Positions 881 through 62,475 of a DNA stretch of 64,000 bases are shown here, piece by piece (within the stretch, counting starts at the first letter, position 1; each line of letters begins with the position of its first letter). The notes below the pieces were generated by a model. That model made no database searches. It was not told the DNA's origin and worked only from the letters and a program-made list of their open reading frames with translations. Origin of the DNA: Obrimoposthia wandeli (Eukaryota). The stretch lies in NCBI GenBank assembly GCA_977020255.1, contig CDROCS010001717.1, positions 248,001-312,000 on the forward strand, in the 5' to 3' direction. Position numbers and translations under genes: made by a program.

Positions 881-1570
881 ACACTATCAGTGTTCCCGTT
901 AGGAAGTTTTATCAGTGCCACGTGTTGATTAGCTTGAATTAGGTCTTGGTGTTATTTGACGCTTCAGACGAATTTATGGGTACGGAAAGGTCATTTAAGT
1001 AATATATTTCCAAATTTTATATACAAATTGAGCAAAAAAGGAATCATGGGGTAAGATAGAAAGAACAAAATAAATTGTAAAAAAGTCGGAAACTAAAAAT
1101 TTCAGTGTATATTTTGTTTAGGAAATCTATAAAGCGAGAATGAGAAGGATTGTTTCCTTTGGGCACGGAAAATAAGAAACAATAAACAAATCATATTTAT
1201 TTACAGTATAACAACGAAATTACAAGTCCTAGAAACAGATCGATGCCCAAGATCATGGATGTACCCTTAAACTTGTCATTGAACGTGTAGTATCGCACTT
1301 GTTATGAATACTTACTTTGTTACTTTTGTTTTTGATTTGACATTTTAAAGTTTTCCTAAAGCTGATCCAAAAAATTCCAAAAATCATTATTATCAAAGAA
1401 ATCAAATTCTCAATCATACATTTCCTTGTTGGCCATTATTTTTGTCTTTGTTGTACAAATTGATATCCAGTTGTTGGAATTCAGTTTTACAACTGTGATA
1501 TACAATTTGAATGGGTGGATTTGATATAAATTGGTTTAATATAATGTCAGATTGTTATTATTATTGATCT

Positions 1571-2905
1571 ATGTCTAATATGAATACAGCTGCCATAGTA
1601 AATTCGGCATTGGAAGATATGGGAATATTAAACGAGAAGAATATGTTGGACAAAAAGAAAGTGGAAAGAGAAAGAGCACGAATAGGTAAAAGTAATATTA
1701 CAAGAGTAACGTCAGAAAACACAGAAATTGAATGTCTAGGATTTGATGGCAGAAAAGATGATACGAAAACAAAGAGTGGAACAGAGAATGAAGAACATTA
1801 TGTAATAGTTAAAGAACCAGGCGGAATCTACGTTGATCATGTTTATCAACATATAATCCAGATAAAAGCCTTAAAGACCTTGTTAATATCATCATGACAG
1901 TTTATGCTCCAGGATGGTTTTGGATTAAGAGTCATCCTAAAGCATATGAAGGAGCACCTAACTTTTGGTACCTCACCCATTTAATTAATGATTTAGACAA
2001 TGAAGAATACCAAATAATTATGGAACGTGTTTTAAAAAATAATTCATATTTTGCTCACCCAGAAAACATGTTATTCTCAATGGTAAGAGACAGAAGAAGA
2101 CATATTAGGGAATTTGCACTTCAAAAAATAATTCGCACAAGAACTACAGGTAAAATTGAAAGGAATTTTGAGCTTCCCAAAACATTGAATCTAAAGGCAA
2201 ATGACTATGTTGATATGATTGACTGGGATAAAGAAAACATCACAACGCCCCCTATTTTAAGACATTTGACAAACGACGAGCTTTTAATCTTACGAAAAGA
2301 ACCCCTACAACTTATTAATATCCCCTGTCATAGCCAAGTAGTAGAACATGCAGTTAATTTAGTTACAAGAGCATCAGCGGTTAGAATTGGCTACGCTAAC
2401 AGGCAAACATATATTTTAAATGTCATTGATTCTAGGAAGAAACTGCCTATATTTGAGTGGAAAAGTCAGTGGTCAATGTAATACGACGTATTATGTATAT
2501 AAATATATGTTCATTTTCTAAAAAGCATCTTTTATTTATTTTATACCACCATTAAATATTTGTTAAGTATATTATAATTATTCTTTAAAAATAGAATTTC
2601 TACACATTGCTCATATGAAGAATGAACTAGTTTTCTATAATTTACATAATCTTTATTCTATAATTCATAAAGTACCTTAAAAACACATAATAACATTAAA
2701 AATAAAGTTTATGACCTACATATCTCATCTAGTTTAATTGTCTGAATATATGGATTTTTTCCATAGATTTAACAAAAATGATGGGGTCGTATGCGAGGGG
2801 TAGGGTGGGTCGCATGGCAATGTAATTTTAGTATGTTGTTCAGGAACCCAAAGGGAACTCAAGGCATAATGTGTAATTCAAATATAAAATTTCGACCCGG
2901 CCTAA
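1571..2905 (+). mobile_element. Internally deleted hAT-superfamily (hATm-like) DNA transposon: transposase fragments 1571-1897 and 1894-2481 plus a probable right terminus
   Basis: N-terminal piece has CLGFDGRKDDT (first catalytic Asp region). C-terminal piece has WFWIKSHP, NNSYFAHPENMLFSM and PCHSQVVEHAVNLVTRAS, as recalled for hATm-type transposases. The minus strand at 2886-2905 reads TTAGGCCGGGTCGAAATTTT, a TIR-like end. No left TIR found. Confidence 0.6.
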
Positions 2906-3463
2906 TGTCTATCATATGAAACACTTGAAGTCAATATACTTCGAGATGACAATTAATTTCATTGATTTTGATTTTATAAGTGTTGGGGTTTCTATACGAA
3001 ACTTGGTACAGATCCTCTTAATGTGCGGAGGGCCCCAACGTGAGTCCGATTAGAAGCAGGTCTTAAAGTTGGTCGTGGCCTACTTAGTGTTATGGTTGCC
3101 TAATCTCTTGTACTATCTGAAGGTATTTGATTTGATGTTTCTCTTATTCTGAAGGGTGCAAAAACAACTTGTTCTAATGTAGGAAATTGTTTATTTGTAA
3201 TTCACGTAACTAACACAACAATACGTTTATGTACGTATTTCTAAAAAGTATGATAAAATTCCTAAGACTTCTGTAAGTCTCTACAAGAAGTGGGGATGAA
3301 CCACGTATCGATTTTACGTTCAGGTGATCGAGATTTTAGGTTTATTCTTCTTACTTAGGTTGGTTAATCTATAACGCAACTCTCTTAAATTTCTTCGCTC
3401 CTACTTCTTATATCTGGATAAAGTTTCTTGACTCCTTAACTCTATCTGCTGTGTGTTTGACCC

Positions 3464-3900
3464 CGAATTGTCCACTGTGAACAATGAGTCTCCTAAAAAC
3501 CTAATTGTCAAAGATGACAATGACAACTCACTCCGAATTGTCAACTACGGACAATGAATGAACCGAATTGTCAACTAGGGACAATGAGTGTACCGAATTG
3601 TCAACTAGGGACAATGAGTATTTGTTCCGAATTGTCAACTAGGGACAATGAATGAACCGAATTGTCAGCTAGGGACAATGAGTCTTACGGGAAAAAAGAC
3701 TGGTATAATTCCTAATTGTCGCTGGGGACAATGAATAAAATAGACGATCTTAATTGCCAACTAGGGACAATGATTGGGTTAATGAGTCAGCAATCCTAAT
3801 TGCCAGCTAGGGGCAATGAATCTGTTTAATAGGTTAAAATTTAGAATTACCAACAAGGGGTAATGAATGTATCCTAATTGCCAACTAGGGGCAATGAATG
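3464..3900 (-). repeat. Array of 12 palindromic ~24-bp units (AATTGYC-N6/7-GRCAATGA) with variable 5-30 nt spacers
   Basis: Units start near 3464, 3501, 3533, 3563, 3593, 3627, 3657, 3711, 3748, 3795, 3841 and 3872. The 6-bp stems covary: ATTGTC/GACAAT, ATTGCC/GGCAAT, ATTACC/GGTAAT. Confidence 0.9.
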
Positions 3901-4070
3901 CTCTAGTCGGTTGTCTTACCAATATGCTGCGACTAGTGTGGCTTTCCGATGCAGGATCCGTATGGAGCGCTTGCGAGTCTGGCGGAATCGTCCTCAAAGT
4001 TAACTGTAGCTTTTGACTTCTTCCGCGCTTTTCACTTCTTTCGAACCTTTCAATTCTGGATACCGACTCA

Positions 4071-4380
4071 ACTTTTCAAACACTGATTCGATAGTTCAAA
4101 TATTGATTCAACTTTTCAATTATTTGTTCAACTTTTCAATTACTGATTCGACTTTTCAATTATTGGTTCAACTTTTCAGTTACTGATTCGACTTTTCAAA
4201 TATTGATTCAACTTTTCAATTATTGATTCGATTTTTCAATTATTGGTTCAACCTTTCAATTACTGATTCGACTTTTCAAATATTGATTCAACTTTTCAAT
4301 TATTGTTTCAACTTTTCAATTACCGATTCGACTTTTCAATTATTGTTTCAACTTTGCAATTACTGATTCGACTTTTCAAC
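4071..4380. repeat. 20-bp minisatellite (ACTTTTCAATTAYTGATTCR), about 15 copies, partly alternating as a 40-bp dimer
   Basis: Direct periodicity of 20 nt is visible over 4071-4380. Confidence 0.95.
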
Positions 4381-4497
4381 AATATAGTCTAAATAATTTT
4401 AATTTCTATCAAATTCCCAATCACCACTTACCGATTCGTGGTTGATTTCTTCCAGTTGCAGAGATATTGATTTTCTTTTCGTAGTTCTTTTTCTGTT

Positions 4498-4631
4498 CTG
4501 GTTCTCTGAGCGATTTCCTTTTATAGAGGCAACTCTGTCAGTTAGATCGACAGCTGAAAATAACTGGTTCTCTGAGCGATTTCCTTTTATAGAGGCAACT
4601 CTGTCAATTAGATCGACAGCTGAAAATAACT
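4498..4631 (-). promoter_or_regulatory. 66-bp tandem duplication carrying a minus-strand TATAAAAG box; possible LTR promoter
   Basis: 4498-4563 is repeated at 4564-4631 with one substitution. Each copy reads GCCTCTATAAAAGGAAATC on the minus strand. LTR identity is inference. Confidence 0.5.
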
Positions 4632-5618
4632 CAATTCAACTCGCTACACAAAAAGGGCTTACCTTAATTGACGTTCTTGTCAATCAACTCTTGGAAATTT
4701 TGAACCGTTTAATTTACGTTTTTAATTATTCCTTTTTAATTAATGCTAATATGTTGCGACTTTTGGGTTAATTAATTTAACTTATATACATCTCACATTA
4801 TACACGACCTTCGTGGTCCTCCTAATTTTTACCCTAACTTCCACTAATTTCAATTCTGAAACTAAAATTAATATTTAATTTAATTTTCAACCTTGCTTTC
4901 AAGGATTTTTATTTTAGTATTTAATCGACTAAAATATTCAAATTTCTTAATTCTCAAACCTAACATAAGTAAAGAATATTTTGCGAAAATGCACTTTACT
5001 GATATAGAAGGTCGCATCATATTTGAAGGTTACAGATATACGTTTAATTATTCAGTAATTACAATTAAAATAAATCCATTACATGTTTTAAATAAAAAGT
5101 TTAAAAAAAGCTACAAGTATAATAAAGTTATTAAAAGTTCTTAATTATCAAACATCAGGTTAAACCTTAAATGTGTATCAGTAACTTTTAAATATAATGT
5201 GACCTTAGCTGTCGGTAAAGTGCATCTACACCAAATATTTAAATCACCAGAATTTTTTTTTATTTTCCCCTTCAATGTTCATTCTAACATTTTATATAAA
5301 CAGTTTTTAAAACATTAACTTGAATTCTTTTTTAATCAATTTCTACTTTATTATTAAATTACTTTTTGAATATTATTTAAAAAGTTGCTAATTACAATTA
5401 TAACAATGATATGTTTCTCTTTTAGAAAATGTTTCTAGATTAGAAAATTAACATTTGATGCTTAACGATTAAAACATGTAAAAAATTAGTAAATTTATTA
5501 TTATAAGCTTATGAGCTTACAATAAGAAAACATACAGAAAAATTACCAATCGAGTAATTTTTCTACTTTGAAGGGTGATTTAAAAAACTACTATTAGAGT
5601 TCTTATTAGGTGATAGAT

Positions 5619-5923
5619 CAGAGGTTTCCAAACTTTGTTAGACGCGGAACCCTTTGGTATTATTTAAAATATATTGGAACCCCTACCTATTTAAAAATAC
5701 TTCAAACTATTAAGTAAAGAATAAAACTTATTTATATTGAAAATTGAAAAAATATTTAAGTTAAACTAATGAAGTATTTGTTAAGTAGTTATAGTGAGCA
5801 GAGGCGAGTAATGTTTATGCCAATTTTTTGTAAATTTATGTTTTATTAAATTTCGGCTCGCAGAGCCTCTGACTTTGTTTACGGAACCATAGAGTTTCGC
5901 GGAACCAATTTTGGAAACCCCTG
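5619..5923. mobile_element. hAT-type (Charlie-like) MITE
   Basis: Ends CAGAGGTTTCCAAA ... TTTGGAAACCCCTG with subterminal CGCGGAACC motifs. The 8-bp flanks TGATAGAT/TATTAGTT match only 5/8. Confidence 0.75.
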
Positions 5924-6780
5924 TATTAGTTGAATTTCCTTATGCTGAACAGGATTCTGATCGAACTGAAGTTGGATTTTATGAACACACTGTATTGAAG
6001 TTAATGAATGTTTAAGAAAGTTGTATAATTGTTAGATTAACAAAATTGAAAATATGATAAATAATAATAAACTCGATGAATATATTAACGAATGAGAGTC
6101 AAATGATGTTTCTAGAACATTCTTATTTAAATAATCAATAGAATATTCTAATTAAATTTGTTTTACTGCATCAATGAATTAATTAAGTCATTAAAGTGTT
6201 AATTGATTTATTTTTAACAAGATTTCATAAAATGGAAAATCAACAAGAAATCAAATTAATTTTAGGTGATGACTCGCCCTCACTTAAGAGGAAAGTGATT
6301 CTTCTGGAATCTCGGATGCTTTGGGAAAAGCTGGAGGTAGAAGAAATCCCAGGATTCGTTAGTTTCAATCCAGGGAATGTTCCAGTCTTTGTATCCGCAC
6401 CGAAGTGGACTTAATGTATTGCTATCACATAGCAAATGAGAATGAACCCTGGCACTCTTCAGGGTCACAATTTTTTATTGTGTCTTGTTTATTATTATTA
6501 TTTTATTATTATTACTTAGATTTCTTTTTAAAAATCTTAACATTATATTTTTGTAGGTATAAAGTGTAAAGTAAGCACAAAGTCTATTCATTTTATAAAT
6601 ATTTAGTTTTCATTTAACCTATTTTACTTAATATTTATCCTATTACTGAAGATCTAAACTATATAAGTTTTAATTGATAGTCTAAAAAAATTAAGACATT
6701 TTTATCACATATTTTGCAAATAGTTGCAAAAAGTTTCATTAGATTTTTCAAATTATAAGCTGTTAATAAATATTTTTTAA

Positions 6781-7545
6781 ATGTTTCTGCATAATATCAA
6801 ATTGGTCAACATAAATTATAAGGGAAAGGTTTAAAGCTCCATCAAGGACTTACCTTTTCGCTAGTAGAAACCTCAACAATATCGTCTCAAGTGTCTAGAT
6901 CAGGGGCGTGCAACATTTTTAGTCGGCGGGCCATATAACATCATTTCAGATATTAAGTGGGCCACACTGAAAATCTAGAATTCATATGCATAATAAATTC
7001 AAAAATTTTACAATATATTTACATTCAGAAAAACATTTATTTAACCTATGTAATAAATCTTGGCAAATCGTTTTAAATTAAAGCGATAAAAAGTAAATGG
7101 CCAAATTTAAAACTGTAAAATTTACCTTACTGTGACGAAACAGATTCAAATCCGGCGGAAGGTAAAAAATAAATTTTGTTAGCGAGGGCCGCACTAACTT
7201 GCATAGAGGGCCACATGTGGCCCGCGGGCCGCTTGTTGTGCACCCCTGGTTTAGATTATAATGGGGTGTAAAAAAGTGTTAGATGAAAGCACTTTACCAT
7301 TTGATATAAAAATCGAAAGAATTCAATCGATTACTGTTAGTGTTGAGTTGGTGCATTAGATAAATCTTAATAAGATGAGAAAAATATTTGAATTGATGCT
7401 TTTTATGAACCAGAAATCTTTCCTGGACTGCGTTGTATTAAGTATAATCCACTTTGTGTAAACAATTTTGCAAGTAAGAAAGTTATGATTTTAGGTTTAA
7501 AGATTTTAGATTTTGTATTTATGGTTGAAGTTATTTTGTATAATA
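6781..7545 (+). pseudogene. TATA-binding-protein-like gene remnant, interrupted by a MITE
   Basis: After removing the MITE, frameshifted frames give IMGCK...IQSITVSVELVHxINLNKM...DAFYEPEIFPGL (7404-7430)...LCVNNFASKKVMILGLK. This is collinear with the TBP core CTGAK...IQNMVGSCD...YEPELFPGL...LIFVSGKVVLTGAK. Confidence 0.7.
6901..7248. mobile_element. hAT-type MITE with 8-bp TSD
   Basis: TIRs CAGGGGCGTGCAAC ... GTTGTGCACCCCTG. Flanks GTCTAGAT/GTTTAGAT match 7/8. Confidence 0.9.
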
Positions 7546-7614
7546 TATCTCTGTTCACTTGTGTTTTTTTTATTCTTGATTTATAAACAAAACTAATTTT
7601 GATCTAAAATAAAA

Positions 7615-8200
7615 ATGAATGATAAAGCGATTAGTGAAGTGGATAAAGATGAACGAAGAGTGAAATTTTTAAATGGATTAGCTTTTATGGAGCCTTTAAT
7701 AGTAAATGCTTCTAGAATGGAAATGATGCATATGACTCATCCTCTTGATAGATGGATTGATTCTAGATATAGTGCTTTTATTAAAGAAAGGTTAGAAAGA
7801 ACAAAAATGAGTGAAATTTTAATAAATCAGCTTTATATTGTTAATTATCGTGATGGGTCTGATAAAACTGGGCTCCTTCAAATGGGGATTTACTCATGTT
7901 ATCAATCATCTCAATTAGATATAATTCAATATAATTCAATATAAAAAGTTAAAATATAAGTTTTCGTTAAAAGGAAAGAAACAATAATGAAATATTTTAA
8001 ACAGACAAATAAAATTATTAAAGAAAATATTCAGAAAGGAGGAAATGTTTTAGTATGTGGTCATTATGGAACACATACTGCTGTGTGAATTGTTATAGCC
8101 TACTTATCTCTTTCTATGTCTGTTAGTACTGCTTTTCATATTGTAAAAACTAAGCCAAGTGTTGCCGTTCCTTCTGAAAATATGTGTACTCAAATTCAAC
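7615..8200 (+). pseudogene. Dual-specificity phosphatase-like (atypical DUSP fold) gene remnant with a non-catalytic active-site motif
   Basis: MSEILINQLYIVNYRDGSDKTGLLQMGI matches the DUSP N-terminal strand. After a frameshift, GGNVLVCGHYGTHTAVxIVIAYLSLSMSVSTAFHIVK matches VLVHCxxGxSRSxTIVIAYLM. Confidence 0.75.
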
Positions 8201-8535
8201 TTTATAATTGTTTCTCAAACATTTAATATATAAATAGAAATATTTTATTCTTATTTCATTTAAATGTATACTCTCAATTATTTTAATAAGTAAGTTGAAG
8301 AAGCAGCTAAAACATTCATTTCCAAAAATGTTATTGAAGATGATGTTATTGATGCTTCGAATCTGGAAGAGCATGTGAGAAGACTCATTCACAAGAAAGC
8401 CGTGGAAAATTTCATCTGGGCATATAATGAAAGGAAGGAGGAGCACATGAATATATTCAGATGCTCAATCTGGGACAATACTATTTTTATGTGTATCAGT
8501 GTTTGTTTATTAATAAATTATTTTATCTTATAAAC

Positions 8536-8865
8536 ATGATTCCTTACCACTCATCTATTTATTATGGAATTGAAAACAACGGTGTTTTTTAAATTGTTGG
8601 ACCAAGTGGAAGTGAGAAAACCCATTTTATTTGTAAATTACTTCAAAATAATAAATATTTTAAATCGAAATTCAATAAGATATATTGGCATCAGGGTGAA
8701 GATGGAGAAGCTGATTTAACTAGTAATGAATTTAAGAAAATTAAAAATATTAAAGTCATTAAAGGATTTGATGATAATTGGTCTGATAGATTACAGCGTC
8801 ATGATGTTATTGTTATTGATGATTTGTATCAGGAAGCCAATAAAGAGAGTGATTTCAACAATCTA
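8536..8865 (+). pseudogene. Polinton/adintovirus-type A32/FtsK-like packaging ATPase, truncated
   Basis: Walker A-like IVGPSGSEKT (8599) and Walker B VIVIDDLY. Homologous to the minus-strand copy at 32960-33430. Confidence 0.75.
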
Positions 8866-9149
8866 ATCAAAACAGAAAAACATTTCACATCATAAAAAAC
8901 GAAGTTTTTTTTACATATAATTTGGAATATAATCATATTAGAGTCTTTATTTATCATTTGATGCCAAATTAATTATCGTGTAGTGTTATTAGATAATATA
9001 AACAAATGTGTTTGTTCTTATTGTAATGATGCGATTTGACCTTAGTGGATATGTCAATCATATATCGCTGACTCATTGAGGGATAGGGGGTACTGTGCCG
9101 GAATCCACACATCTACCTACTACTGTCTGTTTTCTAAATTCTATCTCAG

Positions 9150-9700: not shown

Positions 9701-10049
9701 TAAGTTTATACACAAAATATACCACTAATGAATTCTGAGGTGGATACATGAAATGTCGATTGGAGAGAGATTACTGTATTAACAAATCCACCAACTTTTG
9801 AAATATGTCTATTAAGTTTATTATTATTCAATTACAATATAATTAAAAAGGCATATAAAATCAGAATATTAATTAAAATAAAAATGTATATTTACCAAAT
9901 TAAGTCGGTATTATAATTTATTACCTGTTTGAAATTTTCATTTTATTCTTAATTTTACATTTGAAATTGATCACTCTATTTGATTAGAAGTTATTTGTAC
10001 TTAACAAAATTCACATATCAAATTGTATTTTAAACTAAATTTAATGAAG

Positions 10050-10800
10050 AAATTTACTCTAATATATTTATAAATTGAATTAAAAATTCAACAATAAATT
10101 AATTATTATTAATGTAATTATTTATTGATGAATATTATAGAATAGTTATCAATTGAATTGTATGTTATACGACTAAGTTTATAAAAACTATGAACATTAC
10201 AGTATTTCCGATTACAATTTACAATCAAACTGTTTAAAGTCTGTACAACGAAAGGACATTAATAATAAAACAGAAAGTTGAGCAACTGCGCCTTACTGAT
10301 GAAATATATTGGATTGGTTATATTCGATACACTATGTTCGAAACATTTCTTAAAGCAGTTGTCTAATTGTGTAATTGTAAATTGTTTTTAGAGTAAATTA
10401 TTTCGCATTTAAATACGTAACTACAACGTAGAACAATTTTTCGACAACAGATAAATACTTCGGATTGAAACTGTGTTCGTTTTATTCCTACTCAATTAAT
10501 CAACGGATTTATCTAATGTAAGTTGTAACATTTTCTTCATTCAGTCCAGTGAAATATTCACATTTAAATTTGTAAAGCTAGCAAATAAAATTTTGATATA
10601 ATTCAGATTGTATTAAAGTATCTTTTTACATCTACACATATATGTTGCAAGACATTTCTATCGAATCATTAATTTTGATTTGGTAAGAAGAATTTTATGA
10701 CATCGAACAAGACTGATAAATTATATTTCATGATTATTAAAGTTTACAAGAAAAATCGTAATTTCAAATGATTTATTTTACAATGAAGTTTCAAAAAAAA
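10050..10800 (-). mobile_element. Highly decayed DNA transposase remnant, possibly ISL2EU/Harbinger-like
   Basis: Only short motifs (YFTGL, DC..EI) among many stops. Confidence 0.3.
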
Positions 10801-11026: not shown

Positions 11027-14000
11027 TGTAATGAAGCTACTAATTGAATTATTACACAACAAATATTATTAATAAAACTTGCATAAACACAACACAAAGG
11101 AGGAAAAGAAAGTGCAGGTGATAATGGGGTCACAACTTTAACTTTTCCCCTAAGTTATGGAGTAACAAAAGAGTAACAAAGGTATGAAAGATAGTGAAGA
11201 TTTTATAGTAGTTATCTTCGTCCTCAAAGATGATATCCGAGTTTATGACGTGTAGTTGTGTGTTATCAGAATGGGTTGTATGCGTGTGAATTTTACTTGT
11301 TTCTTGATTTCGAAGGGATTGTTGTTTTTGTGTTTCTGTTGTTTATGAGTGTTGCTATTTGTTTTTTATTTACTAAAGTGGTGTTGTTGTTTTCATTTAT
11401 GATATTGTACGGTCCTCTATATTTTGATTCCAGTTGACGGGAGTTTCTAAGTTTGATGAATGTTTGTTTGTTTTTGAGTATGGGAATGAGGGTTGGTGTA
11501 TTGTTGTGTCTTGTTTGTGTGGTTATTCGTGGGATGTGGTTTTTAAATAGTTGTTGTCTTTGTTGTGAGGTGTGTTGCGTATTCCCATCATGATTCAGTG
11601 AATTGTGTTTGGCCAGTTGTGTAGTTGTTGTAACCATGCTAAACTATCTTTGATGCGTCGATGAAGTCGTTCGATCTTTCCGTTGGTTTGTGGGTTGTAC
11701 GTGGTGGTTTTAATGTTCGTGATGTTGTGGGTTTTACAGTATCCGTTGAAAGTTTCGCTTATGAATTGTCGCCCTTCATCTGTTATGATTTTAGTAGAAA
11801 ATCCAAATAGAGTACATCAGTGTTTGTGCATTTTGTTAATTATGGTTTGTGTGAATATGTTGTATGTAGTGGCAATGGTCCTACGAGATCTGTATGTATG
11901 GTGTGGTAAGGCGTGTCGCAGGTTTAATGTAAGTTTTTTGTGGTGTTGTGTTTTTGGGATTTGTATAAATTGAAAGATGAACATGATTTGATGAAGTTTT
12001 TTGTATCTTTTCTCATGTTGGGCCATATATAATGGTATTTTATGAGCTCTTATGTATCTTTGATTCTTGGATGATGGATGTTGTGAAAGTATGCAATGCA
12101 TCCCTGGTTTAATTCTCGTAGTAGTATGATTCTTGTGATGCCTGTGTTTGTAGTGTCATGCCATATGTTCTAGTATAGAGTGAAATTATATGTATTGTGT
12201 GTGGATTTACGTAAGTCTTCTTTGCCAATGAGTTCGTTTTTTTGGAAAAAATTTTCCATAGTATTTATAGTGTTTGTTTCGTCTAAATCGGATGTTCTGG
12301 ATAATGTGTCTGCAATAATGTTTGTGGAACGTGGAATATACTTGATGTCTGTGTTGAATTGTGATATGTAATTTAACTATCTTTGTTGTCATGCTGTAGA
12401 AGTTTCTAAATGTGTAATTAATGTATTGTTGGTTTATGATCTTTGTAGGTGATGAAAATTTTGTCGATTAGTTGTTCGAAGTGATTGATGGCTTGATATA
12501 TGCTTAGTAGTTCGCGGTCATATGTTGAATACTTAGTTTGATGAGTCTTAAGTTTTTTGGAGACGAAAGCTAATGGTGATGTTATTTTTTATAATCGGAT
12601 TTAATACTGCTCCGATGGCTAAGTTGGAATCGTCGCTAGTTAAAGTTATTTCCGCATTGTGTGTTGGACTTGTTAAAGTGGTGGTAGTTATGTGTGCTTC
12701 TTTTGCGTTGTTGAAATCTTGAAGTTGTTGATCGTTTAGTCTCATTTTTGGGATTTTTGTTTTTAATTATATTGTTTAATGGTGCTAATAAATGTGATGC
12801 ATTTTTTATGTGTTGGTGGTAAAGATTTACCATTCCAAAGAATTTGAGTAATTGTTTAACTGTTTGTGGTCGTTGTAATTCTGATATGGTTTTGAGTTTG
12901 TTCACATTCGAGCTGATGCCATCTACGGACAACGTATAATCTAGAAAGTTTATTTTTTCCTTATTGTATGCACAGTTTTTTTGTCGTATATTTGCGTTGA
13001 ATGCAGATTGATTTGGGTATTAAGGAAATGGCAGATCCAGAATCAAGAAGAAAGCTGTATGGTGTGTTTGAAGTGTGCACCTTGAAAATAACCTTTAAGC
13101 CAGTGTATTGTGGCAATGAAATACCTGGTCTTAAGCGTTGTTTGATTATAAGCATGGAGTTTCGCATTTGTATGCTCGAGAACCGTATGTTTTGTGATAG
13201 TAACAGAGCGGGTCAGTTTTGTATGTCTCACGTGTGTCCTTGTTATGTGTGTTGAAGTGTGGTGAAACATTTCTGAAATGTGTTGCTTGGTTGTATGTAT
13301 GTTTGTATTTGGGATGTGATGAGTAGTTTGTGGAGTAAGTTTTTTTGTTGGTCTGAAATGTGGTGAATTGTTTCTTGAGTTGTTTCTGAAATAGTTTTTT
13401 TTAATTGCGGAGGTAGTCAATGGGTGATTTAGTGGCGATATTTTTATTTGTAGATATAAGTAATTGCATCAGTTTGTTGTTTTCTACTATGTTGTCGTTC
13501 ATATTTTCCAGTATTTTTATTTGCGTGTTATCTGAGTCTGAATTTCCTTTCTGATTATGTATGGTGTTGACATATTCTGTGTAGTTGTTATTATGTAATT
13601 TATCTGCCATGTCGGCTAAATGGTTGATGTTTGTGTTTGTCGATGTTATAATTTTGTCCATGGTGTGTTTTGGTAAATTTTTTAAGAATGTTTCTAATAT
13701 AATGTTTGTACTCTCGTGATTTATATAAGGGTCTAATTGTTTTAAAATATTGTTGAGTCTTTTCTATATAACTGATGGCTTTGTTTCATCAGTGACTTTT
13801 GGGTTGATAATATTTTGTAATAGTTGTATCTGTTTTTTTAGTTGACGAGTGTTGTGAGTTCTGCTATGGGTGTGTCGGAAATGAGGATGTCCTTGATTTC
13901 CTCAGCTAATTCTTTTAGGGTTTCTTCAAGTAGTTTTGAAAGTATTTTTTGCAAAATTTAATGGTCTGTTAAGTTATATTTTTATTCCAGGGTACTATGT

Positions 14001-15100
14001 GTGAGGTTTATCCCTTGATTACGTGTTGTTTTGGTCGATGAAATAAGTAGGAATTGTGATGTTTTGATTTTTGTATGGTTTTATATTGCAGTTTGTGTTA
14101 GTGTTGTTGTTTGATTGAACCTATTTTCTATTTGGCATGTTTGTTGTAGAATTAATATCAGTTGGTTTATATTTAGACTTACGAGGCTTGTGCACAAAGA
14201 TTCTAAAACCTTAATATAACAGAGTTTGTAGGGAAAATTAAATGTTGTTTTAGTATATGTAACAATAAATGTGTGTAGGGTTACTATGATGTGGTGATAT
14301 AAATACTAATCATGTAATTGTTGAAGAGCAAGGAGCAGATGAATAAAGACAGTAAAAACAGATGAATAACAACTAACCGTGATAGATTGCTAAAGTTATG
14401 TTGTCACGGTTTTCTTACTCCTGCCGGTTTGTAGAGTTGAGTAGAGTAGAGAATTGTTGAATTTGTGAACTTGTCATTGTGGTTATTACGATTGTTTCGC
14501 TGATATCTTTGCTTGTAATTGATCTGTAGGATGCGAGTTGAAGTAGTTTGGCTTTTCTGGCGTGTCTGAGTAGTTGTCAGATTGTTGAAGCAGGTTGTCG
14601 TAGATTGTGATAGTATGAGATTAAGGGAATTGAGAAGAACGAGAAAGAGATGAGGTTGTTGGATGATGAGAAGTTGTTGTTGAATTGAATGTTGGCTTTT
14701 TGGAAAGATTGCGCGAATATTTGTGATCGCTGCTAGTAAATAATATGATTTGATTTGTTTTATTTGGAATTGACTAGTTGATGGTAGTTGTTGAGTTGTA
14801 TTGGGATCTTCTTACATCAAATGTTATGCTTGAAATCGAGGTAAGACTGTAAGTAGATTGAAAAGTCTTACAAACTAATTGATTTATTTTTTAGTAATTT
14901 CAATTTCAATTAATGATAGATTCCTATCATTACAAACTACTGTAGCGAGGCTGCTAATCGAATTATTAAATTCAAATTATTCATAACGATAACAGTAAAA
15001 ACATAAAATGTACACACAGGGAATAATAACAAAAACAAAGAAACACATAATAAAATATTCATTACAACGAGAGGGTACAGGAAAGGATATAGTCATAACA
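11027..15100 (-). mobile_element. Decayed Ty3/Gypsy LTR retrotransposon (gag, protease, partial RT/RNase H, integrase)
   Basis: Protease FLLDSGSAISLIP (12961-13167), RT thumb TVKQLLKFFGMVNLY, RNase H LTSDDSNLAIGAVL, integrase fragments 11293-12101, PPT-like AGGGGAAAAG at about 11143-11151. LTR-like ends at 11027-11142 and 14941-15100 share a TAATAATTCRATTAGYAGCYTCRYTACA 3' end. Confidence 0.85.
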
Positions 15101-24329: not shown

Positions 24330-27300
24330 GACCTTCCCACCATAATTTATCTTGGCTCAGTCGATGAACCTCGGCTCCTCTTGACAATATATCCGCTCGG
24401 TTTAACTTTGTGGGTACATGTCTCTACTAAGCTATACTTGTTTTCTCCTGTATAAGTCCTACGCGATTAGCAACAAATGCATTATAATACCGCCATGGCT
24501 GGCGTATCCACCACAGGAAGTTCAGACTGTCAGACCAAAACTTTACTTCCTCTAACTTTAAGTCTAACGCACTCGTGAGTACCTTTGCCAATTTAACACC
24601 GACATTCGCAGCTAATAACTCTAAACGCGGTATACTTTTTACGTTTACAGGCGCCACTTTTGTTTTTGACCATATGAAACTAACTACTATTTTTTCCTCT
24701 TCTTCATTTCTCAAGTAACCTACTGCTCCATACGCCTGCTCAGAAGCGTCTACAAATATATGTATTGAACATTTACTAGCTACTCCATCTGGGAACTTTA
24801 ACCTTATACAGTAACTTTACGTTTTCTACCCAATGGATTATCTCTTCTTTAATACGTCCTTCCACTTTCTCATCCCATTCCCTTCCTGAAAGCCATAGCT
24901 CCTGCATAATAATCTTTGCCCTTATTACTATCGGACTAGCAAACCCTAATAGGTCAAATACTTTTGACAGAAGACTTAGAAATTTCCTTTTTGTAATGGT
25001 CGTTAACATCTCTAAATTCGTCGTCATTTTAAAAACGTCCGCCTGCGCGTTCCACGCCCCTCCCAACGTCTTTATACTTTGCATCGTTTCGCCATCCGCA
25101 ATTTGTAAGACCTACGCTTGATCTGCTATGGCGATTTGTTGATTAACTCGGTGATTGCTACTTAGCCACTTTTTGACACTCATTCCCGCACCGCCCCACA
25201 CTTGCAGTAAGTCTTGTTGTAATTGTATTGCCTCCTTGGCTGACAGCATAAAATCCAAACTGTCATCCATGTATGTGGACTTTAATATCATCTCGATAGC
25301 CCTATCACATACTCACATGAACCTTTCAGTGTTCGGGTCACTAACTGTGCTAAGAATGGTGACGCATTGATCCCAAAAACTACCTGATTAAATTCGTATG
25401 TGTCTACTTGTTCGCGGTCTTTTTATAGAAATCTTAGCCACGTTTTATCTTTCTCTGCCACCTTTATCTGGAGATACATCTCTGATATATCACAAACTAA
25501 TGCTACAGCATTTTTTCAGATTCTTATTAAGATCGTGACTAAATCTCCTTGCAGCTTCGGCCCACAATGAATTAAATAATTCAAACTTGTGCCTCGCACC
25601 TCCGCCACCGCACCAAACACTATTCACACCTTCGTTGTATCCTTTTCTCGCTTGACGACCCGAAAATGTGGTAACAACCACTTTGTCATTTTTACTTCTT
25701 CTTCCGGTACCTTCCTGATATAACCTTTCTGGATATGGCTCTCGATAACACCCATGTACTCTGATCTCAACCGCGTGTCCTTGTCTAATCTTCTCTCCAA
25801 ACTCTTCTGCCGCTGGTTTGCCATTTCACTATCCCATCTAACATTTACGTTCTTATTTTTCCACGTTAGGCTGACTTCATACCTTCCTTCAACTTATTTT
25901 ATTCCGAGTCGTGTTTCTTTTAATACCTTTTCGTCGTTCTAACTTAACTTGATTTAGAGATTTGGTACGGCTTCTACTTCCCAAAATTTTTCTATATTAA
26001 ATTCTTAAGTTTTGATCTGGGTTCCAAATAGGTGTGGGCCAAATTCGTGTGTTGGCTACCTCTATTAGCTCCTCGTACCTGACCAATACAAGTCCATCCC
26101 AACTGTATAAATCTTGCTATCGGTGCACCTGGTCCTTCTCTCACTTCTCTAAGGGCACTCTGCAATTTGAGGTTGTCCGCACCCAGTAATAATTCAACTT
26201 TTATCTTTACATGTACCGCTTGGAATTTTATACCCTCCAAATGCCCCCACATTTTTGCTTCTACTGACCAATTTATTATCTCTAAGTCCCCAGTAATATC
26301 TGGTACTGTTAATGCGTTGATTAGCTTCACATTTTTTTGATCCATTCTACCTAATTCTATGTTAACTTCAGCACAGTCCATTTTTCCCATGTTTACTCCA
26401 ATGACCCCCACCCGAATACTTTTTTTTAGTCCTGAGACTCTTAGCGTTCGTGGCAAATCCTTACTAATATATGAGCGTGTGCTGGCATCATCTAACAAGG
26501 CGTTGACCACAAATTCTTGACCTCTATGCCGTACCATAACTGGTACAGTTCTTAATGCCAAGAATGTAGTTTCTGCTCTTGTCCCTCTCGTGAAGTAGGA
26601 TTGTGGGCACGTCTGATTACTACGCTCTTCATCCACATGCAATATCCAATGATGTTTTTCGGTGCAATTCCTCATTTTACACAACTTATCCACCTTGCAT
26701 TGTTTTACGTAATGATTATTTCGCCGACTATTTCTACATAAACTTTCCTTGAACCCACCGGCGTCTGTCTGCTACGGATAATCTCTGCAATTCTTCACAT
26801 TTGTCTGTGTAATGCTCCTTCTTACACCTTATACAATTTATCTCTCTCCCCACCTTTAAAATTGTTTAGACACCATTCTATTATTTTGCTTTACCGCTCC
26901 TACGAAGGTTTTTGCTCTTTCACTATTTTTATATTTTGGTGCTTCTCTGCTGCAACTCGCTATTTCCTCGGCTATTCGCCAACTTTCGGCCTTTTGTTGT
27001 ATCCATTCTTCTAAAGATCTTATACTCTTTCGCTTATCTCCTGCTTCTAACCTTTCTGACCATGATACTGTTCCTAACATTGGTAGTTTCTGTAGCAATT
27101 TTTCATATAGAAAACCTCCCCCTAATTCCTCCTCTTTTCTAAGTGCTCGTGCTCGTACTGTTACCTCTTGTAATATTTGGTTATATATCTAAATCCCGAT
27201 AGTTGTTCCACCTTATTGACCTGAACCTTTCCACATTTTCCTTTTAACTGTCTATAATTCCTGTCCGTCCCTCCGTATCTTACTGAAATTATCTTCAGTG

Positions 27301-27900
27301 CTTCATCATAGCTTTCTGCTGAGTGTCCTAAGCTACAAATTAACCTTAATGGTTCTCCGTCCACATATTGCAGTAGATGCAGCATTTTCTCCTCTTTATC
27401 CACCGTTGACTGGTCGATCACTTTGTTAAATATAGCTCGCCAGTTTTCGTACTTTTGTACTTCTCCTCTAAAAGTTGGGAGCTGAATTTTCTTCAACTGA
27501 CTTACTCCATTGTTTCCTTTACCTATATTTCCTTTGAGCTTACCTCGCTTCGTGTCCTCTGTCCTTTTCCATACTTTCCCTTGTATTTCGTCGAATTTGT
27601 TTTCCATCTTCTTCTGCTCGCTAACCCATCTTTCTTCTTTTCTGCTGTCATCCTCTTGAAATGCCATCTCGATCTTTTTCTCATAGATTTCGGTTAATGA
27701 CCTATACATCTCTTCATAGATGTTCTGCTTCTCTTTTTCTTATCATCTTCCAGCAAGAAATTGTTTATTGCAATATTGAAATCACACCTGGTTGGCTCCT
27801 TTTTCTAAATTTCTTGTCATTGTTATAAATTATATCTTCCTTATGTACTTTTTTTTCTTCTCTCTGTAGCAAAACTGTTCCTCTCTTAGTCCCCCGCTCT
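24330..27900 (-). pseudogene. BEL/Pao gag-pol, frameshifted: gag (DUF1759-like), aspartic protease, RT, Pao-type RNase H; integrase absent
   Basis: LPTFRGEVQKYENWRAIF; ALLDDASTRSYI; WLLPHFRVVKREKDTTKV; YMDD; FVDASEQAYGAV; SKTKVAPVNVKSIPRLELLAA; WRHVPTKLNRADILSRG...LWWEGP, then directly 3' UTR and PPT. Confidence 0.9.
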
Positions 27901-32399: not shown

Positions 32400-32950
32400 T
32401 TTATGCTTTCCCGATTCTTTGTTTCTAAGATTTCTTGTATTTTGACCACTTTAGACTTTGTAATTCTTTTATACTTGTAATTATTCATGATACATTTACC
32501 ACCAATTTAATTATTTGATTAATTATCCATAAAGTACATTACCGGAGCAGGTTTGGTATCGATTTTAGTGATACGAAACACTTCATCAATCCAATTCTCT
32601 TGAGTTTTCTCTTTATAAAGGAAGTAGTACTAATTTGTAAAATTCACATATAATCTCCAATTTTGTATTTTGGTTTATTTACAACTTGATACTGATTACG
32701 ACATTGCCATATTTCCATAGCATTTTCATCAGAAGTGTATATTGGTCTCTTTCTCTTCAATTATAAGTGCTCACTGTGATTATAGGGATGAATTATATTA
32801 GGTAAAACAGAAACCCAAGACTTATTCCCGACATTACTGAAAGCATTTTTATAATATTTCTGTCAACATCTGATTAAATCTCTCAACTATCGCAGTTTTA
32901 TATTGAGTAAATGCATAATAATGATTATGTAATAATTCTTCAATAATATA
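32400..32950 (-). pseudogene. Polinton-type retroviral-like integrase, C-terminal remnant
   Basis: KTAIVERFNQMLTE, WVSVLPNIIHPYNHSEH, KPKYKIGDY, NWIDEVFRITKI. Confidence 0.8.
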
Positions 32951-32959
32951 CTAACATGT

Positions 32960-33430
32960 CTATTATTCGGGTAAGCTTGCTTTGAAACAAAATCAACTAC
33001 TGTCTGATCATGAGAATTCTTGAATAAAACAAAGTAATGTACATTCAAATTACGAGTTCTCAGATTTCTTCCCAGATGAAATAGGTTTTGCGTAATGAAA
33101 ATAACTGTTACCTCACGATTTCGTGATATTTTAGGAAATAAATGATTAAAATCATTCTCTTTATTGGCTTCCTCATATAAATCATCAATAAAAATAACGT
33201 TATGATATCGTAATCGATCAGCTCAATTATCATCAAATCCTTAATGACTTAATATTTTTAATTTTCTTAAACTCAATACTAGTTAAACCAGCTTCCACAT
33301 CTCCACCCTGATACCAATATTACTTATTGAATTTAAATTAAAAATATTTTTTATTTTGAGGTAATTTACAAATAAAAGGGATTTTCCTCAATACAATTTG
33401 AAAGACGACATTGTTTTTAAACTCCATGAA
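32960..33430 (-). pseudogene. Polinton packaging ATPase remnant (second copy)
   Basis: VIFIDDLYEEANKENDFNHLFPKISRNREVTVIFITQNLFHLGRNLRTRNLNVHYFVLFKN. Collinear at DNA level with 8560-8865. Confidence 0.8.
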
Positions 33431-33699
33431 AAATTTGAGGTAGAGAACTTTCAACAAGCTATATGCAAAACTCAACTAGTAGAAGCAAGACTATATATAT
33501 GAGTGTTTAGGGATAATGTTTATAAGATAAAGTTATTTGAAATAATTTATTACTAAATAAGCACATATACACATAAAAAGAGTTTTTTTCATATTGAGCA
33601 TCTGAATATCTTCGTGTGCTTCTGTTTCCTATGATTATAGGCCCAAATAAGTTTTTCCACGGCTTTGTTACGAATAAGTCTTTTCATATGCTCCTAAAG

Positions 33700-33905
33700 C
33701 AGCGGTTCCCAACTTGTCTGGTGCGGTGACCCCTTGATAACATTTCCCAAGTTGCGGTGACCCCAAGGATAAAATAATTTTATCAACACAAGGACATTTG
33801 GTATCATAAAACAACTTTTTAAAAGGCCTTGCTGCCTTAGGCGACTCCAGGTAAATTGTCAGGCGACCCCAGTTTGGGTCGCGACCCACAGGTTGGGAAC
33901 CGCTG
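33700..33905. mobile_element. hAT-type MITE (206 bp) with perfect 8-bp TSD
   Basis: TIRs CAGCGGTTCCCAAC ... GTTGGGAACCGCTG. TCCTAAAG on both flanks (33692-99 and 33906-13). Confidence 0.95.
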
Positions 33906-33913
33906 TCCTAAAG

Positions 33914-34300
33914 GGTTAGATACGATTCGATGTGTCGATGAGCTTCATAACATCTTCTTCAATAACATTTTTAGAAAAAAATATCTTTACTGCTTCTTCA
34001 ATTTACTTTTTAAAATAATTGGGAGTATACATCAAAATAAAATAAGAATAAAATATTTCTGTATATATATTAATTAATTGAAAAACTATTAAAAATACGA
34101 ATATGAGTACACATATTTTCAGAGGAAGTAGCAATACTACGATTAGCTTTAACAAGATAAGAAGGAGTAATAACGGGCATAGAAGAATAACTTACTGCAG
34201 TAAATGTTCCATGATGCCCACATTACTAAAACATTTCTTATTTTTTAAATATTTTCTTTAATAATATTTTTCATAAAATTACGCAATTTTTTAAATTTCT
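33914..34300 (-). pseudogene. Second copy of the DUSP-like gene region of the old Polinton
   Basis: Inverted homolog of 8010-8330. The motif reads NVLV(C)GHHGTFTAV. Confidence 0.6.
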
Positions 34301-43270: not shown

Positions 43271-43457
43271 GTTATGTAATCAGAAACCAGAATATCCCAC
43301 CGAGAATATTCGTTTATAAATATCCTGTATACGTGAATAAATATTTTGTTTGTACAATCTGACTCTTTTGAATTATGTATGCGATGGAAAACATATATGT
43401 ATATATTTATTTACAAAAGCTACTTTTACTATATTATACAAATATTTCCCCACACAG

Positions 43458-44504
43458 AATGACTCCAAGCGACTGGTGGTGCCAATTATCACAACCAATA
43501 TCAACACCGAGAGCAGCGTCAACATGCAGTTTATGCTCTCACAGCTCAATCTCAACATCACTGAAGTTAACGTAAATGTCAAGAATATTGAGGTCGAATT
43601 CGCTGCACAGCTTAGAAAATTGACGCAGGAAAAGACCAATGTGCTCAAACTAGCCAATTCTGTCAACAATGTTCGTGCCGTTTGGCTCTACATTAACAGA
43701 ACCGTATTTCCATGGAAGAACGATTTCTCCCAACTCAATATTCAGGTTGCCTCGACAACGAGCTTCATTGGTGCTTCCTTTGTTGTCGTCTCGACGTTGC
43801 TGATTCTCGTACCCACTATGTATTTCGTGGCGGTTTACTCTCTTGTGTTATATTGCATCTCATACCGGTTCTACTTGGAGTACCTCATCTCCCAGTCGAG
43901 CGCCACTGCCAATTTGTCACAGGCGCCCTTCATGTCAGTGCTGGACAACTATAAATCCAAACAGAGCCTCGTCAAATTCCGACATAAAACCAACTATCGT
44001 GCCGGTGGCTTCTATGTCTACTTCATCGTCGCCTCCATCCTAATCTTCTTTATTGCCCTAATCTCCATTATCTGTTACACCACTGGATTTCTCGTCTACA
44101 ACGAAGTCTGTGTTCAATTGAACTCCATCGAAGGCCAACTGCAAATGGATTCTATCATCAACACCTTCTTTCAACGCTACTGGAAACTACTAACATCATC
44201 ACTAGACATCTCCAAGAGTCCTGTTGAGTTGATCTTCAGCCAGCCCTCCAACATTCTGTTGAAGATCAAGTCCAACTGCACAGGCACAAACGGGCTACTC
44301 TATGCAGCCGAGATTAACAACATCATCAATATCTCATCTTTCGTATGGAGTCCCGAGAATATGGCAGTGCTACGAAATGGCCTCAGGGGAACTTACAATG
44401 CAATTATCGATATCAACATCATTGACATTATCCCATCGAATATCTTAGAGCTTTTAGTTACCGCCAAAAATATCACGGAATACTTTGACAAGATCAACTA
44501 TCAA
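43458..44504 (+). CDS. Prominin-like gene, exon D (end of loop 1, TM3, TM4, second extracellular loop)
   Basis: Acceptor CCCCACACAG|AAT (phase 0), 349 open codons, two TM segments, GFLVYNEVCVQL and SNCTGTNGLLY motifs as in prominins, donor CAA|GTGAGT (phase 0). Confidence 0.8.
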
Positions 44505-45656
44505 GTGAGTCTCAAAATTGCTAAATAAACCAGTATAAACTCGACAAATAATAATAATAAAAAATAACAACAACAATGATGTATTTAATATAGTACTTTT
44601 ATCTGATCAACCTGGATTTTATTACTCAAAACATCTTTGTGTTTTTCAAGGTAGGTATTATCTTGCATAAAGTTTCTAAATAGTAAAATATTTCGATGCT
44701 CTTTGATACACTTTCTTATTATGTAAATTATTACAAATATTCGGAGTTAAATTTCAAATATTCCATCACTCTGATTGTTATTTTAAAATTATAAATCTGC
44801 AACCACCATCGTTGTACCTAAGATTCATATACATTTAATAATAAGGCATTTATTGGCATCCAATGGAGCTTCATTGAATGTTCACTTGAACAAGTTTTTT
44901 TCTCTACCTCAAATATAATATTCACGGTTTTGTTAAAATGGTTTTAAACTATTTTATTGATAAACTGGAATAATGAACAGCAAGGAATTATGAAAATCAA
45001 GTCTCGATGTAATAGTATATTATTTTAAATCTTGAATATGACAAAGTATGTTTAAAAACAATGTATAAATCCTTGTCGTCCATAGTTTTGCAGAATGGGC
45101 AGATGTAATACACCCGCCCACAAGACTTTGACCGATAGTAGGCGGACATTATCTTCATGCAGGAATCTCCTGCATTTTGGAGCCGAAGCAGCACAATACA
45201 CTAAAAACAGGTTACAAGTTATGTGAAATAATAAAGATTAATAAAGATTAAAAAAATATAGGTTATTATCATATTAATTATTTCAAAAATTGGGGATATA
45301 ATGAAAATATTTACTGTTATTGAATTTATTCCTTCAATGAGAAGAATTGTTTATCTGTTATTGGTTGATAATATTAAATTTTATATTTTTTATTTCTTCA
45401 ATTAAAAGAATTGTTTATTTGTATGTAAGGTCATTTATCATTGGTTGAAATTGTTAATTTTTTATATATTGTATTTCTCCAATTAGAAGTATTGTTTATC
45501 TACATGTTAAGTAATATAAAGATAGACTTAAACACTTTTTAAATGCCCAATGTTCACCATGATCGCAATATGGATAGCAAATATTTCGTGGAATTTTTAA
45601 TAGATAATCAAGTTAAGTATTTCAATCCTAATTTTTGCAAATATTTTTTTAATGTC

Positions 45657-48598: not shown

Positions 48599-50459
48599 AA
48601 TGTCTTATATTTTTTGTCATCATCTAAAACATAAAAAATTCCACTTTCAATATAAAAATTAGATTTAATTGTATTGATAATACATAATTATCAAAAAGGC
48701 TTATTTCCTTCTTTCCATTTTAATAAATAAAAATATTTAGGGAGATATAAATTAATAATTTTATTATTATAATCTCAAGTCCTAAACGGGATATCAACAT
48801 AAAATATGAAATGCAAAGAATGAAAAATGTCACATATATCCATAATACATAATTATTTTTATAATATAATCTGTATGTTTGTTAATGGAAGCCTCAAAGT
48901 CAATGATATAATCTTGCATAAATACCCAAATATGTTGCAAATTCCTTTATAAAGAATTTAAATAGAAACTAATAATCAAAATTTATTAAAATATCAAAGT
49001 ACTCCGTATTCATTTTTTCTGTTAAGATTGCTACATATTTTCAATTCTCTTATGAATATTAAAATAAATTATATAAAATGTAATCCTAGCTAATAATATT
49101 GAAAGTAAGTGCATATTTTATCTGCAACAATTTATGGAGTATCGTTTTTTGAGAAATAATTTTTTCGTAATCTACCATTAAATTTGGAGATAATTTAATG
49201 TATAATTTATTCAATTTTATTTTATCATCCATCTTATAAAACAATATATATAAAATTGTTTATATTAAGTATGGTTATGTAAAATATTTAGTCGATAATA
49301 TTAATTATATTTATATATATTTATTGATTAACTTTATGTAATTGATATGATATTTGAATCATTGATTTATTTTACACGGAATTTAGAGATATTTAATGTA
49401 TTTGATATTGGATTTGATTAATTATCATGGATTTATTAGATATGTAGAATATTTGATTTGGTTTATCTGGGATTATGTTTAATTTACATGGATTTAACAG
49501 ATATAAAAATGAATGGAGCTATGGATTTCAATATATTTACAAGTTCTCATTTATGTTTAGTAGGGTTCACATGGGTTGTCATTGATTTTCATAAGTATTT
49601 TCATTGACTTTACTGAGATTGCATTTAATTACATAGGTGATTTTAAATTAGCTATATATTGGGATATAAGATTATATTACCAGTTATGTAATTATATATA
49701 TTATTATAATTTACTCTCATACATACATATACGTATAATGATATATCGATTCTTGATGTAATCTGTGTAACTCTGTGAATTCAACCTGTGTATTCCACCA
49801 ACTTGCAAAATTTTGCAAATACTTGCAACAACCAATCAAAACACAGACATCTTCACATACGTTCATGTTTTGTTCTAATATATACATTCACAAATATATC
49901 GACTCTCCTTGTACTTTTCAACCAATTTTCTGTAATTTTTGAAAGAGCTTCCACAAATCCCATCAAATATTAATTATTGAGCATAGAGAACATTGAGCTT
50001 ATAAAAAATGTTTTTCTTAGAATTTGGAATAATAAAATTTTAAATAATCTTATTTATTTAAAATAAAACATCTTATAAGTAAGAATAATTTTTTTTTAAA
50101 AGAAAAATTACATGGTAAATCTATGTTTGTTTTACTGTGTTATTTTTAACAAAGAAAATGAAATACAAACAATCAATTGATATAAACAGGCCAATTTCTA
50201 TAAACAAACGAATTATTAGTGTTTAAACTATTACAAAATTACTAATGTAAGCAGTTTATTTTTGATATTATTTTACTAATTATATTTTTAGTGCAATATT
50301 ACAAAAATGTATGTTTTAATCAATACCATTTGATTTGCAAATCAAAGATGCAACGATATTTTGAAACAAAGTTCTTTGGACGTATTTTCTATATGTTTCC
50401 AATGTGAACCGACTGATGATCAGCCTTTTTCATTCATCAAGCTCATTTCGGAAATTATT

Positions 50460-62182: not shown

Positions 62183-62300
62183 GGTCACAGACTAGTCCTG
62201 TGATGTTCGGATATCTCGTTCTCATATAGGTCACAGACTAGCTTGGCGATGTACGGATATCTCGCTCTCATATAGGTCACAGACTAGCTTGGCGATGTAC
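62183..62300. repeat. 46-bp tandem repeat running into an assembly gap
   Basis: Units start at 62183, 62229 and 62275 (GGTCACAGACTAG...). Confidence 0.9.
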
Positions 62301-62471: not shown

Positions 62472-62475
62472 CTCC

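Follow-up and report, generated by a model that had tools for sequence, protein, structure and literature searches.

A twelve-unit stem-loop array inside a likely Gypsy-type solo LTR

Results

The locus and its surroundings

The window, the whole 64-kb stretch of DNA analysed here, is AT-rich eukaryotic sequence full of decayed mobile elements. Between positions 3466 and 3897 it holds an array of twelve short repeat units with the form of stem-loops, which lies inside a 1,985-bp element (2981 to 4965) that is likely a solo LTR. The array, the element, its target-site duplication and its segments are given below without strand.

The array is preceded, at 1568-2904 on the plus strand, by a transposase-like frame that is broken. 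It gave no Pfam match and has four unnamed relatives of 659-729 aa at 36-59% identity; presumably it is hAT-like. The frame ends in a TIR-like CGACCCGGCCTA (2893-2904), with GGGTCG as subterminal motifs. On the other side, 4975-5047 and 5167-5239 form a 78% inverted repeat that is MITE-like, immediately outside which the array-bearing element seems to have integrated. Decayed pieces resembling Polinton/Maverick elements lie at 7300-8900, 32800-34300, 46300-47400 and 50400-52300; Pfam identified an ATPase and a protein-primed polymerase B with an endonuclease VII motif in them, and TBP-like and phosphatase-like fragments were noticed by eye. The minus strand carries a decayed Gypsy-like element, recognised by eye, at 11100-14400 and a decayed BEL/Pao element (Pfam Peptidase_A17, DUF1759) at 24400-27750, neither of which shares sequence with the array-bearing element. 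A 395-aa open frame at 43341-44528 (plus strand), which we take to be prominin-like, has hydrophobic stretches and no Pfam match. An assembly gap is marked by a run of N at about 62300-62475.

Twelve units of a single pattern

Scanning the 64-kb window with the pattern AATTRYC-N6/7-RRYAATGA gave twelve matches, all on one strand and all within 3466-3897, where 100 shuffled windows gave a mean of 0.06 and at most 1. The units start at 3466, 3503, 3536, 3566, 3596, 3630, 3660, 3714, 3752, 3798, 3845 and 3876, and each consists of an A, a 6-bp stem closing a loop of 6-7 nt, and GA. The stem is ATTGTC/GACAAT in seven of the twelve, ATTGCC/GGCAAT in two and ATTACC/GGTAAT in one; the remaining units, at 3466 and 3752, each carry one C-A mismatch, which is U-G on the minus strand. 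Loops are of 7 nt in ten units and 6 nt in two, and all twelve face the same way, with none inverted. Nine positions, AATT and AATGA, are invariant throughout, three of them unpaired, while the inner pairs swap and the loops drift. The spacers between units measure 8-32 nt and are mutually dissimilar except among units 3-7, which are recent near-exact duplicates. A first-pass annotation of this DNA had described a twelve-copy stem-loop array with irregular spacers that no stop-free frame crosses. The counts confirm this description, and the stops present in all six frames across the array rule out a coding role in any of them.

A covariance model built from the twelve units recovers every one of them from the whole window at E<=2e-5. 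The best match in the window outside the array has E=0.24, and 20 weak matches lie elsewhere in the window at E<=10. A perfect hairpin at 4667-4684 (ATTGAC-GTTCTT-GTCAAT, preceded by A), within the middle segment of the element, resembles a unit with a double transversion. The model did not report it at E<=10 and we do not count it as a thirteenth unit.

Known structured RNAs were not recognised here. None of 4227 Rfam families, the iron-responsive element (IRE), the hammerhead and the histone stem-loop included, matched at E<=10 over 2500-5500, and the hammerhead core pattern is absent from both strands of 2900-4800. An IRE has 5 nt between its bulged C and CAGUG; in unit 1 CAGUG stands 8 nt from the bulged C, and we rejected this identity. 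The Helenus, Ajax and Cassandra TRIMs, whose LTRs contain tRNA- or 5S-derived sequence (PMC10886601), were set aside as well, with 0 genes from ARAGORN and 0 Rfam matches. A bacterial promoter scan gave chance-level results that are irrelevant to the array.

Stem changes occur in mirrored pairs

When the twelve units are aligned on the minus strand, all 71 two-sided cells pair, one of the 72 cells being lost to a gap. Both-sided changes are seen at two of the six stem pairs and make up four cells of this alignment; the four-cell count was reached by 1 of 500 shuffles and the two-pair count by 34 of 500. Controls in which the partners were slid gave 13-67% pairing, against 100% for the true partners. 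In a simulation over a hand-set unit tree, two compensated pairs arose from 5-6 random stem substitutions with P=0.0005-0.010. The mirrored stem change, read earlier from the series TGTC/GACA, TGCC/GGCA and TACC/GGTA, is real, and the covariation consists of two independent events at one locus. A selected hairpin is the best reading of the unit; a DNA site would also account for the data, with less neatness though not poorly. The invariant AATT/AATGA, taken with the swapping inner pairs and drifting loops, fits a protein that reads the base of a folded stem.

Singly the hairpins are weak, with predicted energies of -0.8 to -5.9 kcal/mol. The five near-identical units of 3536-3660 have predicted own-stem probabilities of 0.04-0.28, because such units cross-pair with each other in the prediction. 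CUAG is present in seven of the twelve loops, all by descent, and on the plus strand these loops read two purines, CUAG and one purine, a layout that we take to be that of the HIV-1 DIS. Units with a CUAG loop and a perfect stem are predicted to be 7-8 kcal/mol better as a homoduplex than as two hairpins. We regard the loop as a lead only, since a 4-nt palindrome occurs in 23% of random 7-mers.

The parent element is probably a solo LTR

Identifying the parent element was a check that the first-pass annotation had proposed, and it led to a likely solo LTR, which that annotation had not named. The sequence TAAG stands on both sides of the element, at 2977-2980 and 4966-4969, as a candidate 4-bp target-site duplication. 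The left end reads TGTTGGG (2981-2987, plus strand), a putative integrase-recognition motif or short inverted repeat that matches TGTTRNR, and the right end reads CCTAACA (4959-4965), which matches YNYAACA. In either orientation the element fits the consensus described for LTR integrase ends, TGTTRNR...YNYAACA (PMC3601003). Inverted similarity between the two ends amounts to about 10 imperfectly matching bases, and there are no long inverted repeats. Pairs of TGTT and AACA with a shared 4-mer are common by chance, occurring 102 times among the 514 TGTT sites of the window, so the boundary of the element rests on the depth edges.

At these edges YNYAACA with TAAG has a chance of 0.002 of falling in the 200-nt bin of the depth collapse, and TGTTRNR one of 0.017 of falling in the 10-nt zone at the left edge. 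A contig from run X5 begins to align at 2978, beside the left end. At the right end a unique contig from run X3 (depth 51.3) aligns from 4965 to 5673 with 0 differences and is preceded by 24 unaligned letters. With 31-letter words, an element-free allele should begin to align at exactly 4965, after exactly 24 unaligned letters, and from this start and letter count we infer that the contig fits an empty-site allele. Together the ends, the duplication and the depth edges make 2981-4965 probably a solo LTR of a Gypsy-type retrotransposon.

The element belongs to an interspersed multi-copy family, with no second copy in the 64-kb window. The sequences covered showed no copy with paired LTRs, a primer-binding site, a polypurine tract or gag-pol. 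Neither the unit pattern nor the left-end pattern was found in the viral contigs or prokaryote genomes scanned. A small hairpin, GTTTC-TATAC-GAAAC, occupies 2988-3002, 7 nt inside the left end.

Solo LTRs of animal Metaviridae (Gypsy/Ty3) are described with the same 7-nt ends, a short target duplication, AATAAA and TATA-like motifs and high copy number. The present element differs from them in being 2 kb long, in being known without an internal domain and in its twelve-copy hairpin block, which is not among the conserved features given in the available text of that study (PMC3601003).

Depth divides the element into segments

Other copies were viewed through the contigs of four runs aligned to 1000-7000, X1-X3 coming from one sample of organism A and X5 from a second study. 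Unique contigs have depths of 5-11 in X1 and 40-52 in X3 (seven of the eight long pieces listed; the eighth has 77). Summed depth does not equal copy number, and its division by 31 was used as a floor. On this basis the left segment has about 1,100-1,400 copies and the right segment 900, while the array bins have 340-780 and the middle segment 4-12.

The left segment (2981-3465) is the most repeated, with a summed depth of 0.87-0.93 million in X1 and 1.7-2.1 million in X3. In X1 the depth is about 0.9 million over 3010-3411 and 0.09-0.25 million over 3412-4014, and the array lies below both flanking high-copy segments. The low-copy middle segment (3935-4747) has 1.0-2.1 thousand in X1, measured over 4015-4617, and 6.6-18 thousand in X3, which is 30- to 240-fold below the array. 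It is bounded by two plus-strand copies of a 14-bp direct repeat (3921-3934 and 4748-4761, 13 of 14 letters alike), a length reached by 0 of 2000 shuffles. The right high-copy segment (4762-4965) follows; the bin 4819-5019 sums to 0.45 million in X1 and 1.4 million in X3, the next bin to 199 and 2,154, and the fall exceeds 600-fold in each of X1-X3.

The middle segment is probably a captured or subfamily-specific piece. It shows no similarity to the left segment above shuffles, and no joint crosses it from 3934 to 4762 among the 15 of 156 joints listed, which counts against a simple insertion. Within it lie a 20-bp minisatellite of 15.6 copies (4068-4379) and a 66-bp duplication (4498-4631) that carries the minus-strand box TATAAAAG at 4591 and 4525. 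Because the depth here is so far below that of the array, most array-bearing copies probably lack TATAAAAG, and these boxes cannot be the promoter of most of them. The minus-strand TATA box reported about 0.6 kb upstream of the array is present, in this low-copy segment.

Some smaller features of this region were noted. Each 66-bp monomer has CTGTC-A[AG]TTAGATC-GACAG, resembling the TGTCA[AG]CTAG of the unit, and in the first monomer CCAGTT follows TATAAAAG on the minus strand by 24 nt. GT motifs like splice donors occur near 4655 and 4430. Positions 3898-3914 match 587-603 over 17 nt, but shuffles scored higher and the match was dropped.

The array varies among copies

Ten of the 15 joints listed (156 in total) link 3621-3654 or 3739 to 3870-3876, with differing spacer letters. 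Three single X3 contigs that join 3739 to 3871 have depths of 15,554, 7,563 and 2,271, or about 300, 150 and 45 times the unique depth, and represent near-identical copies with a unit of the last type (GCC/GGC). The other spacers at the joints and these deep contigs indicate that unit order and spacers vary by subfamily and that the last unit type is present in many copies. At one joint, of depth 823, a unit that ends like unit 12 is followed by a spacer whose homologue, alike in 15 of 21 letters, stands behind unit 9, which suggests that the unit 9 mismatch may not be common to all subfamilies. In loose contig ends there are loop variants of 8 nt whose right stem arm is intact, and an X5 contig that spans 3489-3739 differs there in 21 letters and has 5 gaps.

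Neither strand is favoured

The two strands fold alike, with folding z-scores of -3.77 (minus) and -3.48 (plus) and a mean probability of a unit's own stem of 0.38 and 0.39. Any transition in a perfect stem is G-U on one strand, so the G-U bias assigns no strand; two of two mismatches as minus-strand U-G has p=0.25.

Motifs were no more informative, TATA and poly(A) motifs being no more frequent on either strand than in shuffles. The minus strand has TATATAAG (4788) in the right segment, and TATAAG (3407-3412) and AATAAA (3341-3346 and 3190-3195) in the left segment. The plus strand has TATAAC (3370-3375), an Inr-like CTACTTC 31 nt on (3401-3407), GATAAA (3417-3422) and a GT-rich stretch at 3450-3459; if this set were used, the array would fall at the start of U5. 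Candidates for the order TATA, AATAAA, GT-rich exist on both strands, and none of these motifs rises above shuffles. On the minus strand the array has an A content of 0.23-0.30, lower than the 0.35-0.47 of most other bins, and this may be a weak echo of the A-depleted R regions described in PMC3601003. Overall, G-U bias, folding energy and TATA/poly(A) motifs favour no strand. The first-pass annotation had read the single mismatches, which it placed at 3464 and 3748, as minus-strand U-G pairs and the array as RNA hairpins in the leader of a minus-strand transcript; the mismatches are as it observed and a hairpin is the best reading, whereas the strand and the leader position are unsupported.

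Discussion

We tentatively favour a reading in which the array sits in a likely Gypsy-type solo LTR and its units are RNA hairpins forming a multivalent packaging or dimerisation signal, packaging being one of the functions (binding, packaging, localisation) put forward earlier for the array. Genomic RNA includes all parts of an LTR, whether at its 5' or its 3' end. The element would be the LTR left by recombination between two LTRs, and a full-length parent would transcribe the array, as a leader if it lies in R/U5 or as a 3' tail if it lies in U3. A protein, most simply the Gag nucleocapsid of the element, might then read the invariant AATT...AATGA stem base on the folded stem, and the inner stem pairs may swap while this base and its flanks are read. 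Alternatively, the CUAG loops could pair between two RNAs. Template switches during reverse transcription would add or remove units and could give rise to subfamily-specific arrays. There are precedents for parts of this scheme: stem-loops are described as kept in long R regions (PMC3601003), kissing loops and palindromes mediate the dimerisation of Ty1 RNA (PMC5454406) and dimers of HCV 3'X are reported to be mediated by a CUAG loop (PMC6092582).

The main rival, possible though somewhat unlikely, is that the same solo LTR carries a DNA enhancer made of tandem palindromic transcription-factor sites beside the LTR promoter, with the mirrored changes produced when short inverted repeats undergo template-switch repair. 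The ACAATG of the units presumably resembles a Sox/HMG site, and we count it in favour of an enhancer. At a distance of 54 nt from the array there is a minus-strand TATAAG (3412), the depth of the array below both flanks is as expected of a variable U3, and the invariant flanking bases, with nine constant positions, fit a DNA site as well. Sirevirus LTRs are described as holding palindromic repeated motifs just upstream of the TATA box, which vary among members (PMC2829016, PMC4728375), and template switching between stem arms can yield mirror changes without selection and fix a stem in one step (PMC8794818). However, a dimer site does not select mirrored changes, and GCC/GGC and ACC/GGT alter both half-sites. 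All twelve loops keep one orientation, so that loop inversion, one of the footprints of template switching (though the rarer one in the available text of PMC8794818), is not seen, and the TATA-like motifs are at chance level. The same mutational process would also have to maintain symmetry if the array were a neutral LTR minisatellite, grown by slippage from a chance inverted repeat. This we consider quite unlikely; there are further tandem repeats in the element (20-bp and 66-bp) and units 3-7 are recent near-exact duplicates, but the 22-nt core is conserved far better than the diverged spacers of 8-32 nt, and diverged units persist in many copies.

Two other readings change the class of the element. 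It is very unlikely that the element is a non-autonomous cut-and-paste DNA transposon, Ginger2 or IS3EU/IS481EU-like with TGT...ACA ends, in which the array serves as subterminal transposase-binding palindromes. The very high copy number and lack of a coding frame would fit a MITE-like element, and Ginger elements are described with TGTNR ends and Ginger2 with a 4-bp duplication (PMC2836005), where we find TGTTG, TGTTA and TAAG. Yet the reported inverted repeats of about 40-270 bp in Ginger1 and 50-180 bp in Ginger2 (PMC2836005) contrast with the ~10 imperfect bases here, and their target preferences are absent, TAAG being neither CCGG/CCGT (Ginger1) nor within RTATAY (Ginger2); the target reads TTATAAG. 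The array also occurs once only, 0.5 and 1.1 kb from the ends, and not at both ends. GingerRoot/IS3EU was rejected, as the element has neither the 6-bp duplication nor the 100-150-bp TIRs expected (PMC6839031), and the same short ends fall well below the TIRs of IS481EU (PMC10045372).

We find it highly improbable that a distinct non-autonomous Helitron occupies 2981-3907 and that its 3' terminator hairpin has been multiplied to a stack of twelve. Helitrons end 3' in a hairpin followed by CTRR and insert before a T; at 5' an A precedes TC, and they are not known to make a target duplication. The last hairpin (stem 3877-3895) is indeed followed after 7 nt by a plus-strand CTAG (3903-3906) and a T (3907). 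Depth falls near 3890-3900 by bin arithmetic, if depth is flat, and none of the 15 joints listed shows a link to the right segment, 12 of the 15 being uninformative. On the other hand, the left edge is G then TG rather than A then TC, the trailing CTAG follows only the last unit, and both the 4-bp duplication and the contig that fits an empty site make 2981-4965 a single insertion.

Returning to the RNA hairpin reading, LTRs with palindrome arrays are already known, and so are structured cis-signals of retroelement RNA. One of the closest likenesses is to the repeated motifs of Sireviruses (PMC2829016, PMC4728375), which are likewise many short LTR palindromes, variable among members and able to form hairpins. 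Sireviruses are plant Copia elements with GC-rich CGG-CCG cores in CpG islands (PMC2829016), whereas the stems of the array are AT-rich and have no such core. The array is further set apart by its asymmetric 6-7-nt loop and mirror substitutions; the word 'compensatory' is absent from the available text of PMC4728375. The SL1a/SL3a and PAL sites of Ty1 (PMC5454406) and the HCV 3'X (PMC6092582), as described there, are likewise short stem-loops with a self-complementary loop or stem. The Ty1, HCV and HIV-1 signals have one to three sites with longer loop complementarity, in contrast to up to 12 weak units here, with a 4-nt palindrome in seven. The Drosophila gypsy insulator consists of 12 Su(Hw) sites in the 5' UTR, which are non-palindromic DNA sites outside the LTR without known covariation. 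That insulator shares with the array its twelve short conserved units, irregular AT-rich spacers and Gypsy-type element. A dozen co-varying hairpins in an animal LTR were not found described in the literature covered, with Repbase, most subscription journals and supplements outside its scope.

More speculatively, and in our view unlikely, an abundant animal LTR family may use an expandable array of roughly twelve co-varying hairpins within its LTR as a multivalent RNA packaging and dimerisation module, combining CUAG kissing with a protein-read stem base and tuning unit number and order among subfamilies. Whether it is a hairpin signal or an enhancer, the array is a transposon-internal feature and not a host regulatory RNA. 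Few cis-signals are known through which the RNA of invertebrate LTR retrotransposons is packaged, dimerised or localised. A family of hundreds to thousands of copies with a modular, co-varying 22-nt unit makes a strong covariation test and simple binding assays feasible, and could show whether hairpin copy number is selected as avidity. If the array were instead an enhancer, it would be of modest interest as the animal counterpart of the palindrome region in Sireviruses.

One similar arrangement was seen in a metagenome contig (L001), which is GC-rich and has its own short-repeat cluster with other flanks and loops; we treat it as unrelated. Its cluster, at 9880-10170, is intergenic and consists of about ten AATTGCC...GTCAAT/GGCAAT repeats, a pattern match by convergence.
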